Shown: positions 54,401 to 60,400 of the stretch, piece by piece
How positions within the stretch are numbered: the first letter of the stretch is position 1
Layout: each line of letters opens with the position of its first letter
Made by a program: the position numbers
Assembly: GCF_002854065.1 (NCBI RefSeq)
Contig: NZ_CP024148.1
Source: Escherichia coli
GTDB taxonomy: Bacteria > Pseudomonadota > Gammaproteobacteria > Enterobacterales > Enterobacteriaceae
Direction: 5' to 3' (one strand)
Length of the DNA: 62,585 nucleotides

Positions 54401-57400
54401 AGTGAACTGAAAAAGGCTGAACAAAGCAACGAACGTGAAAAGAGATTGCAAGCAATTAAAGAGTATACATCGTAATACAACGTAAAGCATTACTTGTAAA
54501 TACAACACACTACATCGTAATACCAGAAAACACCAACGCCAGCGAGCAACAAAAAGGGGCGATTAAGCCCCTGCGCGATGATTAATGACTTCTTTTTCCA
54601 GTGCCTAGCTCTGGATCAAGCCTGACGTTAAACACACCTTTAAAGGGCGCGTCAGGCTCCTTTCCGTCCTCCACACAGGACTGTAAATACAAATCAACCG
54701 ATGTTTTAAATTCCCGTTCCAGGTCAGCTAATGTTTCTGCCTCAAAAGTCACCAGATCTCGAATAAATGCCAGCTTTCCATGCAGGATATTATTTTCAAA
54801 ATCCGGCTCAACTGTACCTAAATATCCTTTATATTTTAAATGTTTCATAAAACCCCAGCCTCTTTCAAGAAAAGTTATCAGATAGAAGGGTGAAAGAAAA
54901 TACCAGGGAGCAGCGAGGCCACATACCCCTAAGCGCAGCGCAACCGCCGGAAAACGCACCACACTGTAAAGACAATAAAATCTTTACAACGTAAAGCTAA
55001 CTATGTAATACAACGCGCTACCCAATAAGAAAGGGAGAGCATGACACTCTCCCCATATATGACTCAAACTAAAGCATTATCCCGGTTATGCGCCCACCAA
55101 ATGATTTCGCTAATAATCCATGCTTCTATCGCGGGTGTTTTTACAGGTTCCCCATTTACAATGCGGTTTGCAAGCTCTATCATTTCACATACTGACATTT
55201 GAGAATCTCCAAAGATGCATCTGTCATTTGGTAACAGGCTGCCCCACAGCCTGTTACCAACCCCAAATTAGTATTTGCTGATTACTTTACCCTCCTTAAT
55301 CATTTTTATTAGTTCCTGTTCAGAATATTCTTTTCCGTGTTCCAATGTGGAATATATATTGCCAATAGTCCATACCCCACACTTTTTAATTTCTGCATTT
55401 AGCCAGGATTCATGCAGAATAAACAACGGTTCGCAATCATTTCCTTTTTCATAAACATAAATAGATTCGGTATCATTTCCAGAATCAGAAGTACCAACGA
55501 CTTTTTCTATATCGAAATGTTTTTTTAGAAAAGTTGTGAAATGCATTTTCATGCTCCTGCCGCTGAGCGGCTTTGGTGGTTGGGGACCATCCCCTCCCAA
55601 TGTGTTTATAATAGGTCAGAACTGACCTATTATCAAGTATTTTTCCCTCCATTCCTCAAAAAAAACGCCATCAAATACAGACAGTTACATTCATGTAATG
55701 CCCGACAGGGCATGGAAGGGGCGAAAGAAAATACCAGGGAGCAGCGGGGCCACATCGCCCCGAAGCGCGGCGCAGCCGCTGACGAACATACCAGGATGCA
55801 CAGGGCCATCCCTTCGCCCTGCAAAGCCAGAACAGACCAACAGGCCATGATCATGCTGATTTGCGCCGCAGAATGCCGCAGTTAGCGCGAGCGCCAGCGA
55901 GTTTACGCCGTCCTGGTGCATTGCAGCAGGGCGGGGCGCTGTACTGCGCGTGTGAGCGTCAGCGAGCTACGGGCGCAATTGCTCATTGTTCAATGCAACT
56001 GGGGCTATTAAGTCCAGCCATAAATTCAGTTATGGTTTTTGTAGCTTATTCCGTGATTTCGTCATACGTTAATTCTATTTTCATCTTAATATTCCTTAAT
56101 TACTTCCAGAATCAGAATTCTTTTTATTCCTTTTACAAAGTACATAATCAGGGTGTTCTCCAGCTAAAAGCAGAAGAAATTTAAACTCTACTGGTGTAAG
56201 TGCTGTACCGCTTGCAGTTCCGACAGGTTCTTCTTTGCGACGCCAGGTACGCGGACTCATGCTAAATATTTCGGCACATTCTTTCTGTGTCAGGCCAATT
56301 TTTTGCCGCAGACGTTTAATGTTTTCTGGTGTGTTTTCATTTGGCATTTTTTCCCTCACTCATTTCCTGAATCATCATAGAAACAATTTCTTTATCATTC
56401 TCTCTTAATCCGTCGCTGGCAAAGTCGATAGTGTCGAATGCCTTCTCATGAAAAACAAGATCGGCAACAGTTTTCACCGTTGCTTTCGTTTTTCCTAAAG
56501 TCGCAGACTTAGAAAAAGTTTTTACTCGCTTCACCAGATGAAACGTATCACCTTCTTTATTCAGATAATATTGTCTGTCACCTTTTCTTATCTTCATATT
56601 GAGATAGTCTCCCCTTTTAACAGTAAAGGGGCATATAGCCCCTTTCTTTTAACTTTTTCCGGTAATCAAATCGACATCTTCCTGATAAAGCTCCCCAAGA
56701 ACCGGAACAACGCCTTTTTTATAATCACGGATATTATGGCAGTCTGTAAAAATGACGACATAAGCCTCGCCTGTTTTTTCATGTTTAAGGCAAATTGTGC
56801 AAAGCGTCACGCGCACAACAGAAAACACATGACCAGTTGTAGAGACGATAGCAGGAAAAGTAGATTGTTTCATGTTTAACTCCTGCCGCTGAGCGGCTTT
56901 GGCGATTGGGGACCATCCCCTCTCAATGCATTAATAATAGGTCACAAATGACCTATTATCAAGTATTTTCTAGACGAGCTTTATTGAAAAATCATTTTCA
57001 ATAAATTCATCTAACATCTTTAATATACCAGCTTTATTTACGAAATCATCCTCCATAATTTCGATACTTGCTGATATTTCACATGTAAACTCAATGCTCC
57101 TGTCAAATCCCGCAATCCCAGCTAATGCAGACAGCATATGATAATTATCAATATTTATATTACCAATAAGAACTTTCATTTATCCTCCTGATATGGGGGG
57201 AATCCCCCCCATATTAAAAATTACAATCTGGTTGCAAGTCCGGTTTGTTCATTAAATAAACATTCAAGCTGATCACAATAAATATTATCAAATTTTGATA
57301 TTTCTTTTACTGTAGCTCCACGGACACGGGAAAATGTCACCAGGTATGTATCAGAGAAGGTTAATTTGATTTTAACCAAATTAATTCCCTTCATTGCAAA

Positions 57401-60400
57401 ATTTGAAGGTAAACGAAAGCAAAGACCAGACTCACCATTTTCATCAAAACAGGCAAAGTTCTTTGCGCCTGTCATAGCAATAAAGCGGTTTCCACCAAGC
57501 TGATTAAGAATTTCAGTAGCAACAAATTTGGCGTGGTTTTCCATTTTTAAGCTCCTGCCGCTGAGCGGCTTTGGTGATTGGGGACCATCCCCTCTCGATG
57601 TGTTTATAATAGGTCAGAACTGACCTATTATCAAGTATTTTTTCCTCCTTTCTTTAAAATAAATATCGTTAAATACAAATATTTACATTCATGCAATGCC
57701 CGGCAGGGCATAGAAGGGGCGAAAGAAAATACCAGGGAGCAGCGGGGCCACATCGCCCCGAAGCGCGGCGCAGCCGCTGACGAACATACCAGGATGCACA
57801 GGGCCATCCCTTCGCCCTGCAAAGCCAGGACAGACCAACAGGCCATGATAATGCTGATTTGCGCCGCAGAATGCCGCAGTTAGCGCGAGCGCCAGCGAGT
57901 TTACGCCGTCCTGGTGCATTGCAGCAGGGCGGGGCGCTGTACTGCGCGTGTGAGCGTCAGCGAGCTACGGGCGCAACATTACATTGCTGCATTCGCCTGG
58001 CATTCTCCACGCCTTGAAGGACGGAGTTTTACTGCGCACCAGATAAAAAAAGGGGCGATTAAGCCCCTGTATTCACTATTAACAATTTAACATGGTTGCA
58101 GGGGATACCCCCTGCAACTATTTTCTTAGTAGTATGATGTGAACTCGTGTTTTTCTTCCGGTGATGCTTTATATGCTGTTTCGAATGACTCAATTTCAAT
58201 TGCTGGCGTACTGTAATAATCACGCACTCGCCGTTTTAATGGCTCACCACAGAAATCATTGAGTAATGGGGTCTTATATCCGCTCATTGAATGGGTCCGA
58301 TGAACCGAAGCGCGAATCTCCTGAACAGTTACGGTTTTTTTGCCATGAACAGAAATAACCTGATAGAAATTAACGTTCGTTTGCTCATATCCCCAGGAAG
58401 ATACAAACACATCGCCAACAGAAACAGTGCCGTTATTAAAAGTTAATGTTTTCATTTTTATCTCCTGCCGCTGAGCGGCTTTGGTGGTTGGGGACCATCC
58501 CCTCCCGATGTGTTTATAATAGGTCAGAACTGACCTATTATCAAGTATTTTTCCCTCCATTCTTCAAAAAAACACCATCAAATACATATAGTTACATTCA
58601 TGTGATGCCCGACAGGGCATGGAAGGGGCGAAAGAAAATACCAGGGAGCAGCAGGGCCACATCGCCCCGAAGCGCGGCGCAGCCGCTGACGAACATACCA
58701 GGATGCACAGGGCCATCCCTTCACCCTGCAAAGCCCAACGGACTGACAGGCCATGATCATGCTGATTTGCGCCGCAGAATGCCGCAGTTAGCGCGAGCGC
58801 CAGCGAGTTTACGCCGTCCTGGTGCATTGCAGCAGGGCGGGGCGCTGTACTGCGCGTGTGAGCGTCAGCGAGCTACGGGCGCAACAACACACCAGGCAAA
58901 ATCGCATCCTGAAAAGTTACCCTGTAACATACACACAATGTAAAGCGCAAAAAACAATTACATTGTAAAGACACAAACATCTTTACAACGTAACTATAAT
59001 GAATACAATGTAAAGACAAATAAACCTTTACACTGTATATCCGAGGTTTCTATGGGGAGAGCATTACTTGTCGCATCAGATAAAGGCGGTGTAGGAAAAA
59101 GCACCACAGCAACAAACCTGGCTTCTTATCTGGTAAATAATTCACGAACGGTCATCATTCTGAAGACCGATAAAAACAATGATATTCTTAGCTGGAACGA
59201 AAAAAGAAAGCAGAATGGCTTATTACCGGTTCCTGTTTATGAAGAGTATGGCGATGTATCAGAAGTCATTAAGCGCCTGAAAAAAATATGTGAAGTGCTG
59301 ATCATTGACTGTCCAGGGCATGACAGCAAGGAATTTCGCAGTGCCTTAACTGTAGCTGACATTCTGCTTACTCTCGTTAAGCCGTCTTCAGATTTCGAAG
59401 CAGAAACGCTGACTCATGTAACAGAAAAAGTTCGCACAGCTCAACAGATCAATCCAGACCTGCAACCCTGGGTACTTTTCACGAGAATTAACACGACAAA
59501 ACCACGCCACAGAAAAGCAGCGATTGATCTCGACAAGTTACTCCGGGAGAACCCGGTGTGGATACAGCCACTTCGTACACGTATTTCAGATTTAGATATT
59601 TTTGAAGCGGCCTGTAATGAAGGCGCTGGCGTTCATGATGTACGTCGCGCATCCAGCCTTTCTACAGCTAAAGCACAAATAGAGCTTTTGGCGCAAGAGT
59701 TAGGCATCAATCCCTAATGGATGTAATACGACAGCTTTACATCATTAACTTTACACAGTAAAGCTAATGTAACACACGAAAGGTGATATAATGGCTCTTG
59801 ACTTGAAAACTCCGGTAATACCAGGACAAAAAACAGAACAAACCAATGCAGACACAGCCCGATTCATCAATGAAGCTACCCGCAAAAAATCGGGAGCAAC
59901 TAAAGTGACCAATGTCCGGCTTGGGGACGTTTACGAAGATATTCTGGAACGGGAAGCACTGCGAACAGGCCAGACAAAAACAGCAATAATGAAAGCGGCT
60001 CTTGCAGCTTACGAACACGGCCTGGACGAAAACGGAAAAAATCACTGGATTCTACAGTCAGCCAGGCTGAAATGATAAAGCCCTTCGGGGCTTTATCCCT
60101 TACGTTTTAATTGTTTCTTCTCGCTGGCTTTCTTACGGGCATCGAGAACCAGTTGCGCATAAGTTGCGTGTGCTTTTTTTACTGTACCAGCAGGTTTCCC
60201 GTAAAGGTCGTAACGTGTTGCGCCTGGTACAGTACAATTCTGAAGATATTGCCACCGGAACGTCATCACCTGAACCGCACAATTCCACTCTTCAATCGTC
60301 AGATCCACATCCGGGTTATCCGCCAGGTATTTCTCAACGTCCTGGAGAATCCCGCTTTTCAGGGGCAAGTTCTTTTTTTCGTCTGTCCATAGTTCAGGAA

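Follow-up and report, generated by a model that had tools for sequence, protein, structure and literature searches.

CUP-type repeats in the leading region of an mcr-1 IncI2 plasmid: a proposed regulon of primase start sites and repressor-controlled promoters

CUP ('conserved upstream repeat') elements are direct repeats of IncN plasmids such as R46, the leading region of which is experimentally defined. In F and IncI1 plasmids, RNA polymerase recognises folded single-stranded DNA (ssDNA) in the leading region, and expression ends on conversion to duplex (PMC9849209, PMC12672017). Transcripts of these Frpo promoters are also reported to prime DNA synthesis (PMC7690428). Three classes of ssDNA promoters lie in the leading regions of F and R64 (Wen et al., PMC12672017). 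Classes 2 and 3 comprise hairpins upstream of klcA/ardA or of an M.EcoGIX-type methylase gene; classes that do not resemble Frpo are a recent discovery (PMC12672017). The complementary-strand origin of phage G4 is the type example of a G4-type single-strand initiation signal (Nomura et al. 1991, Gene 108:15). The present analysis concerns an island of repeats and small genes in a stretch of 62,585 nucleotides from Escherichia coli (contig NZ_CP024148.1; hereafter the window), which is essentially a whole mcr-1 IncI2 plasmid (62.6 kb).

The repeats of this island are members of the CUP family and distant homologues of the IncN CUP elements, an assignment that is solid at the sequence level. The island itself is read here, with a modest preference, as a CUP-type leading-region regulon in which every unit of ~440 bp contains a G4-type priming signal and a repressor-controlled sigma-70 promoter. 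Each unit thus probably joins a start site for the host primase to an ordinary repressor-controlled promoter.

Repeat units, operators and the Xre-type regulator

The 22-nt core CCTTCCATGCCCTGnCGGGCAT is common to every R46 CUP and to the IncI2 units, in equal orientation. The order of the parts is also equal in both and consists of ~300 nt of GC-rich sequence, the CCTTCCATGCCCTGnCGGGCAT hairpin, an AT tract, the promoter, leader hairpins and the Shine-Dalgarno sequence (SD). Further blocks that align between the CUPs and the IncI2 units are CCCGTAxC, CGCAGTACxGCGCC, GGCTTwGCAGG..GGGG and GGCGAT, and the R46 CUPs match a joint profile with E values of 1e-91 to 1e-94. The homology is limited to the GC-rich half and the junction hairpin. 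The GC-rich half is also found twice in mcr-1 IncX4 plasmids (92% identity), upstream of small genes facing taxA/taxC, as well as in a Serratia IncX-like plasmid and in IncN2. What appears to be new here is the occurrence of CUP-type leading-region repeats, together with a putative Xre-type repressor, in IncI2 and IncX plasmids. No paper linking CUP with IncI2, IncX4 or priming was found in the searchable literature, outside which the original CUP descriptions lie. A 54-nt piece of the junction region, comprising the hairpin and GGAAGGGGCGAAAG, is present in the ColV-type IncF plasmid NZ_CP041303 (4001-4054). Many large IncF plasmids have this piece at ~90% identity beside genes for colicin immunity, away from leading regions, and it looks like a remnant.

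Three full units, R1 (55553-55990), R2 (57545-57990) and R3 (58456-58895), are present on the minus strand as direct repeats with pairwise identities of 92.2-93.5%. R3, which matches the family profile with an nhmmer E value of 1e-126, is composed in gene orientation of a distal GC-rich domain, a G-site-like core, the junction hairpin, an AT tract, the promoter/operator, a 5' untranslated region (5'UTR) with two hairpins and the SD; R1 and R2 have the same build. The GC-rich part has 62.5% G+C, against 42.7% for the whole plasmid. The junction hairpin, ATGCCC-N4-GGGCAT (55698-55713), marks the boundary of the GC-rich and AT-rich parts, and further copies are located at 57696-57711, 58605-58620 and 61751-61768. 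A promoter-only module, P2 (56877-56969, minus), contains the operator, hexamers, UTR hairpins and SD without the GC-rich part and drives the operon that includes the Xre gene. The homology stops at the start codon, with the three full units and the promoter-only unit each ending at an ATG. In the leaders of all four promoter modules, two hairpins (GGGGATGGTCCCC and GCCGCTCAGCGGC) are followed by the SD GGCAGGAG, which lies immediately 5' of the ATG. A fragment of ~70 nt from the GC-rich part (54881-54949, minus; found by nhmmer, repeat family D6) lacks the junction hairpin, the CTG block described below and the promoter module, and a divergent fourth GC-rich copy (61646-61978, minus) lies beside the replication region.

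The three full repeats had been recognised in a preliminary description made from the sequence, and a repeat search recovered them at the same positions (families D1-D3). The module which that description placed before the genes (TTGATA-17-TATTAT, a perfect palindrome, a hairpin and an SD before the ATG) is present at all four of them. One of its two partial copies corresponds to P2, whereas the other, 54849-54960, is the GC-part fragment and holds neither operator nor hexamers. Folding of a unit as ssDNA, which the description had also raised, showed that the + strand is more structured than its shuffles (z -4.65 and -3.84), compared with -2.95 for the other strand. The fourth GC-rich copy and a recognisable CcgD relative among the cargo had been overlooked, as had the kinship of the element with the IncN CUP repeats.

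The minus-strand sequence TTGATA-17-TATTAT is found in 4/4 promoter modules and has 10 of 12 consensus matches, as in a good ordinary duplex sigma-70 promoter. All four modules also contain a perfect palindrome with arms of 11-12 bp, ATAATAGGTCA(G)..(C)TGACCTATTAT. The predicted operator, ATAATAGGTCAG-TT-CTGACCTATTAT, fills the -35/-10 spacer of R1 (55608-55633), and its copies are located at 56934-56959, 57606-57631 and 58516-58541. The core TAGGTCA-N4-TGACCTA has exactly four sites in the 62.6 kb, all of them at the four promoters. A weak mirror promoter, TTTATA-17-TATTAT, with nine of 12 matches, is present on the + strand.

The -35, the spacer-filling palindrome and TATTAT are kept in other plasmids, and the palindrome sequences differ. 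The palindromes are AATACGAC-N6-GTCGTATT in IncX4, AATACATCTA-AA-TAGATGTATT in plasmids L006 and L007, and AATACCGCAC-AT-GTGCGGTATT in the Serratia IncX-like plasmid. Every such plasmid encodes one family of Xre-type helix-turn-helix (HTH) proteins (48-98% identity), always with a small partner gene ahead. Over five plasmids, the four operator types (A-D) and the four Xre paralogues correspond one-to-one. A single type occurs together with a single Xre gene in the window (type A), in IncX4 (type B) and in L009 (type D), and both L006 and L007 combine types A and C with two paralogues. Every Xre gene lies in an operon headed by an operator of its own type. This pairing of operator and putative repressor is well supported by the comparison.

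In the window, an Xre-type HTH protein of 83 aa is encoded at 56096-56347 (minus) and is proposed as the repressor of the four promoters. It is preceded by the partner gene of 86 aa (56337-56597, minus), which precedes the Xre gene in all cases and has 41% identical homologues in IncX4 and in L006/L007. Because the palindrome co-varies with the Xre-type regulator, it is interpreted as the operator of an ordinary double-strand promoter. The likeness of the Xre protein to Aca3 (E 0.013) and to Aca1 (E 0.9) is weak and at the level of the HTH. A regulator of the ArdK/ArdR type was considered and rejected: blastp and tblastn searches of the plasmid returned no ArdK/ArdR homologue, and the Xre-type regulator occupies that place.

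Transferred strand and the GC-rich half

The region 54500-59100 is 100% identical to many plasmids of ~60-64 kb from E. coli, Shigella and Salmonella (IncI2, MOBP, MPF_T). The features of one such record, NZ_CP116975, are repA, hok, ProQ/FinO, a parA-like gene, the island, hicAB, traL, mobC, a 1437-aa relaxase, ISApl1, mcr-1 and pap2. The core of the origin of transfer (oriT; 50420-50490, +) is located in the window between mobC and the leader and is composed of a GC-rich inverted repeat (50420-50439), the inverted repeat CGATTGTA..TACAATCG and then GTATCGTG; from this layout a putative nic is placed near 50490 (+). The genes mobC (50025-50366, minus) and that of the MOBP relaxase (45715-50028, minus) are on the side of oriT that would enter last. 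The nicked strand of R64 has the order GGGGCGAAGCCC, ATTGTAAT..ATTACAAT, CATCCTG|T, which matches the oriT order on the + strand of the window, and it leads 5' to 3' into ardA, psiB and ssb. Since the two orders are parallel, the + strand is taken as the transferred strand, the 5' end of which would enter first, from ~50490 toward higher coordinates. The R64 relaxase has no detectable similarity to the window relaxase, and the strand assignment therefore comes from architecture. The geometry of R46 agrees, with oriT followed by plus-strand stb genes and then minus-strand CUP genes.

The cargo genes of the island are all on the minus strand and point to oriT, with the + strand as their template. 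The preliminary placement of the island in the leading region, with oriT-facing genes antisense to the strand entering first, thus agrees with both the R64-like oriT layout and the R46 geometry. Between the putative nic and the promoter of the leader operon (TTGACA-17-CATAAT, 50622-50650), the interval 50515-50660 contains a run of short ACCCACA(A/C)-type repeats, to which an accessory protein of the relaxosome may bind.

The GC-rich half of the units looks like a primase start site. The block CCTGC(A/T)AAGCC, on the strand complementary to the genes, is the most conserved block of the whole family and is invariant among its members. The sequence CTGCAAAGCC (55819-55828, +) is the predicted DnaG start, opposite T55820, and has copies at 57817-57826, 58726-58735 and 61871-61880 (the last as CTGCTAAGCC). 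An exact 11-mer match, CTGCAAAGCCA, is found at positions 3996-4006 of G4, where the annotated primer covers 3970-3997. The G4 primer starts at the T of ...GTCCCTACTGCAAAGCCAAAAGG, and the IncI2 units read ...CCCTTCGCCCTGCAAAGCCAGAACAG. On the transferred strand, CTGCAAAGCCA sits just 3' of a hairpin cluster. The motif CTGCWAAGCC occurs four times in the window, always on the + strand, against 0.16 expected (0/100 shuffles reach four); each of R1-R3 has one and the origin-proximal copy has one. A blastn search of the GC-rich part against phage genomes gave no useful match, and the link to G4 comes from direct inspection and a profile search.

In every member of the family and in G4, the template 5' of the CTG contains a TCCC-rich tract and 100-125 nt with about three hairpins. 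The junction hairpin exists in the variants ATGCCC/GGGCAT, ATCCGC/GCGGAT, ATGCGC/GCGCAT and ATGCCGC/GCGGCAT, and one pair in another helix has four pair types. Double-change pairs number 15, compared with 7.2 ± 1.8 in shuffles (0/500) and 1-7 in slid controls.

The fourth GC-rich copy, 61646-61978, is flanked by hok/sok and the replication region and closely follows repA and the origin. A profile made from leading-region units only, of which it was not a member, detected this copy with an E value of 7e-10, and it ends with the covarying junction hairpin ATGCCGC-N4-GCGGCAT. This copy is a candidate replicon 'G site'. A segment with ~92% identity to it occurs in more than 5000 plasmid records; in an IncFII record that starts at repA, the same segment occupies 1459-1709, 600-850 bp past the repA stop. 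Masai and Arai (1989) reportedly mapped a primase-dependent start of the leading strand, the 'G site' of R1, downstream of oriR. A promoter-less copy also occurs in R46 (32810-33090), where it immediately follows repA and 6.5 iterons of 37 bp; the existence of such a copy argues for a function independent of the promoter. In the origin-proximal copies of IncI2, IncFII and IncN, the CTG strand sends synthesis away from the origin, and in the leading-region copies the CTG is always on the transferred strand.

Two further observations concern this half of the element. Another block without variation, which reads CGCAGTAC(A/G)GCGCC along the gene strand and GGCGCYGTACTGCG along the transferred strand, is found at 55900-55960 and also in R2 and R3 (alignment A2, columns 58-70). 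It contains TACTGC as at the G4 start (CTACTGC) and adjoins a covarying hairpin, and it may mark an additional start for primase within the distal ~170 nt. An IncX4 plasmid contains one unit (2915-3338) between the replication initiator gene (1061-1927, minus) and a J-domain cassette, with the CTG oriented away from the origin side. From this placement and orientation, a single element could serve both vegetative replication and cassette expression.

Proposed mechanism and alternatives

During conjugation each cassette would enter in the order gene, promoter, priming signal. On the + strand, the hairpin cluster, pyrimidine tract and CTGCAAAGCC of the GC-rich half would form a G4-type single-strand initiation signal, at which host DnaG would start a primer opposite the T of CTG on SSB-coated DNA (T55820, T57818 and T58727). 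Primer extension toward lower coordinates would pass the junction hairpin, the AT tract, the promoter (~185 nt away), the 5'UTR and the gene. On the entering strand the promoter is 5' of this signal, and the new strand would therefore run straight through promoter, 5'UTR and cargo, so that each cassette would become duplex soon after entry.

The AT-rich half would then act as a strong conventional sigma-70 promoter, the spacer of which would be an operator for the island's own Xre repressor, with a leader of two hairpins and a strong SD ending at the ATG. A fresh recipient contains no repressor, and the cargo genes would therefore fire once the promoter is duplex. Xre repressor made from the P2 operon would accumulate and close all the promoters, and the repeats would let cargo be swapped by homologous recombination. 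A wider form of this proposal is advanced tentatively, at slightly below even odds. It states that in IncI2, IncX and IncN plasmids portable replicon primase start sites upstream of repressible promoters replace ssDNA promoters, with programmed conversion by DnaG, a burst of expression owing to repressor absence, and use of the same element in vegetative replication.

Several points weigh against this mechanism. The family profile has a single match in the G4 genome (both strands searched), which is at oric and in the correct orientation, and this match is weak (E 0.035, 4.4 bits); outside the CTG block the likeness to G4 is one of architecture, not of sequence. The covariation draws on some four independent lineages, and the alignment in which it was counted is also the one that supplied the structure. 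Consensus folding energies are -60.0 for the transferred strand and -53.1 for the sense strand, and among 38 pairs predicted on both strands, eight wobble cells fit the transferred strand and two the sense strand. These values are suggestive of folding specific to the transferred strand, a tendency that is not significant. The distal ~170 nt of the GC-rich part has no role in the model, and P2, which is without this part, would depend on synthesis arriving from R2. The IncFII segment is presumably the R1/R100 'G site', judging by its position. We infer, moreover, DnaG priming, Xre repression, the early timing of expression and the anti-defence role of the cargo.

Of the other explanations, one assigns function only to the promoter/operator half and regards the GC-rich half as a passive replicon relic, homology for shuffling or a structural insulator, with no priming role. 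It accounts for the variation of cargo between the repeats of IncI2-like plasmids, among which one cassette, that of the J-domain protein, is common with IncX4. It is also compatible with the inversions and deletions between CUP copies reported in IncN2 (PMC5371602) and with P2, which works, or at least persists, without the GC-rich part. However, the CTG block and hairpins are kept with compensatory changes over IncN1, IncN2, IncX and IncI2, whereas the promoter halves have diverged beyond alignment. Whether referred to the transferred strand or to the origin, the orientation is invariably that required for priming, and ordinary terminators already part the cassettes. This explanation is considered unlikely, if still deserving of attention.

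The preliminary description had favoured promoters of the Frpo type: the entering + strand would fold, RNA polymerase would start on ssDNA, and duplex conversion would switch the genes off. Location and orientation fit this explanation, as does the excess of + strand structure over shuffles; the recently found ssDNA-promoter classes without Frpo similarity (PMC12672017) also speak for it. On ssDNA the palindrome would rebuild a duplex of 11-12 bp with the -10 hexamer exactly at the hairpin base, and might be active in this form. Frpo1 and Frpo2 of F are 89% identical to each other. The IncI2 units, however, had no match better than E 0.06 in 18 kb of the F leading region (blastn, word size 7), and the family profile had no match in 38 kb of F and R64 leading regions. 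The same F and R64 regions searched against the whole window shared only hok/sok with it, with no Frpo-like sequence. Homology to Frpo, class 2 or class 3 promoters was rejected from these searches.

A promoter-forming long hairpin was likewise rejected, as neither strand, folded as ssDNA, brings the hexamers into a long duplex. The 11-12-bp palindrome of the + strand folds on itself, with the -35 in one half and the -10 in the other; the two hexamers pair with each other's halves and with no distal arm, and no fold joins them in a duplex of promoter length. No sigma-70-like hexamer pair was found in the GC-rich stem-loops. The hexamers with their 17-nt spacing suit an ordinary duplex promoter, the palindrome changes in step with the HTH regulator, and GC-rich copies without promoters occur at replication origins. 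Expression from folded ssDNA is thus regarded as rather improbable. In the label 'Frpo/ssi' used previously, the first part is no longer supported, and 'ssi' may be suitable in the sense of a priming signal.

A structured RNA encoded by the GC-rich half, either as a long read-through leader or as an antisense transcript from the mirror promoter of the + strand, would explain the conserved, covarying structure and that weak promoter, but it is given very little credence, as the element has no Rfam family match and promoter-less copies at replication origins, the promoter is downstream of it in gene orientation, and terminators are located upstream of R2.

If primase start sites combined with repressible promoters do operate as proposed, they would constitute a second, directly testable route to early leading-region expression and would explain the purpose of the enigmatic GC-rich half of CUP. 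The short conserved targets (the CTG block and the operators) and the small repressor family would then be available for studying or blocking establishment. IncI2 and IncX4 rank among the principal plasmid types that carry mcr-1, and KPC, IMP and NDM genes are found on IncN plasmids. The module is common to all three groups, with a GC-rich half that is 92% identical between IncI2 and IncX4. Research on plasmid establishment is at present focused on Frpo-type promoters, and large surveys detect these by BLAST with a few F/IncI1 sequences (PMC11541004, PMC12826799). Surveys of this kind would score IncI2, IncX4 and IncN plasmids as being without early-expression machinery. The most interesting result is that the GC-rich half of the repeats can be connected with both the replicon G site and the primer start of G4; the mechanism that this offers is concrete and testable, and is not proven.

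Cargo, neighbouring features and comparison with known systems

The island is a modular set of small, mostly uncharacterised cargo genes, all encoded on the minus strand. The genes behind R3, R2 and R1 encode proteins of 109 aa (58126-58455; phrog_37844), 107 aa (57221-57544; phrog_9437) and 94 aa (55268-55552), respectively. A 69-aa gene (56970-57179; phrog_1585) follows the 107-aa cargo gene, and a 74-aa gene with no family match (56649-56873) is the first of the P2 operon. An orphan HicB-like antitoxin of 88 aa (54582-54848) is encoded downstream of the GC-part fragment. The 94-aa protein is a homologue of IncN CcgD (49.5% identity, E 2e-33), the product of a CUP-controlled gene of R46. Three island proteins match PHROGs phage families that have no assigned function. 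Apart from the CcgD homologue, the HicB-like protein and the Xre protein, the island proteins had no match in NCBIfam, PADLOC or PDB, nor in Pfam, in which four proteins were searched. The small proteins had previously been described as unrecognised, and profile searches leave most of them without a characterised or functional family; the product of 55268-55552 is the one for which that statement has to be withdrawn. Candidates for establishment or anti-defence factors can be taken directly from these cargo genes, for which an anti-defence role is plausible from their position.

The cassette of R3 is closed by the intrinsic terminator AGGGGCTTAATCGCCCCT followed by a T-run (58051-58068, minus), an identical copy of which is present at 54555-54572. 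A terminator search detected another at 55032-55054. The sequences that precede the two AGGGGCTTAATCGCCCCT terminators are similar, which suggests that cassette ends are repeated like cassette heads.

The inverted-repeat motif (A)CACTGTAAAGACA-N-TCTTTACAGTGT is present in at least six copies at 53813-54002, 54958-55008 and 58932-59052 (repeat families D4 and D7). The copies flank the island and lie directly upstream of a parA-like gene (59052-59717). These motifs probably bind a partition/regulatory pair, ParA with the product of a CopG/ribbon-helix-helix gene at 59791-60075. At the other side of oriT, a module of ISApl1 (44424-45404) and mcr-1 (42669-44294, 541 aa) adjoins the relaxase gene, as in pHNSHP45-type plasmids (module 42669-45404).

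A hok/sok-type module is located at 60998-61169 and 61194-61334, with an Rfam sok match of 98 bits and a weaker second copy; it corresponds to direct repeat D5 (61014-61138 / 61211-61335) and, with 81% identity to flm, is all that the window has in common with the F leading region. A known RNA family was rejected for the repeats, as an Rfam search over 53000-62585 matched only sok. Downstream of the origin-proximal GC-rich copy, a 53-aa Cro/YdaS-like HTH gene is encoded on the minus strand (61384-61545), and its promoter region contains the long palindrome AATCATATAGTA-AAT-TACTATATGATT. This locus (61384-61640) repeats the design of the island, with a GC-rich element, a hairpin, a palindrome promoter and a small gene. 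At the counterpart position of the IncFII record, yacA is next (1774-2043).

In comparison with the Frpo/ssi promoters of F and ColIb-P9/pESBL (Masai and Arai 1997; PMC9849209; PMC12672017), the IncI2 repeats have neither sequence similarity nor a promoter-forming long hairpin. Their expression would be expected from duplex DNA and would be ended by a repressor instead of by conversion to duplex. The Aca-controlled anti-CRISPR operons of phages are functional analogues, in which a strong promoter is shut by a small HTH autorepressor of the same operon. The Xre protein resembles the Aca proteins only at the generic HTH level, and Aca operons carry counter-defence genes, whereas the cargo of the island has no known activity of this kind.

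The IncN CUP elements are likewise leading-region direct repeats of ~400-440 bp, each ending at the start codon of a small oriT-facing gene. Both systems have a GC-rich upstream part, a shared junction hairpin and a strong promoter overlapped by a repressor site, as well as swappable cargo including a CcgD homologue and an extra copy near repA. The promoter/operator halves, however, are unrelated in sequence. The IncN promoters are repressed by ArdK (with ArdR), whereas the repressor here would be an Xre-type HTH protein with at least four operator specificities. ArdA, ArdB, CcgA and CcgC are missing from the island cargo, in which one CcgD homologue is present. The IncN elements reside in MOBF plasmids, and those described here in IncI2 and IncX plasmids of the MOBP type.

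G4-type initiation signals share with the GC-rich half a hairpin cluster on the template, a TCCC-rich tract and CTGCAAAGCCA, with its CTG at the annotated G4 primer start. Replicon copies are alike in that a homologue is located just past the IncI2, IncFII and IncN origins, oriented for synthesis away from the origin. The element described here departs from the G4 signal in that it recurs within a leading region, joined to a regulated promoter and to a cassette gene, where priming is predicted.

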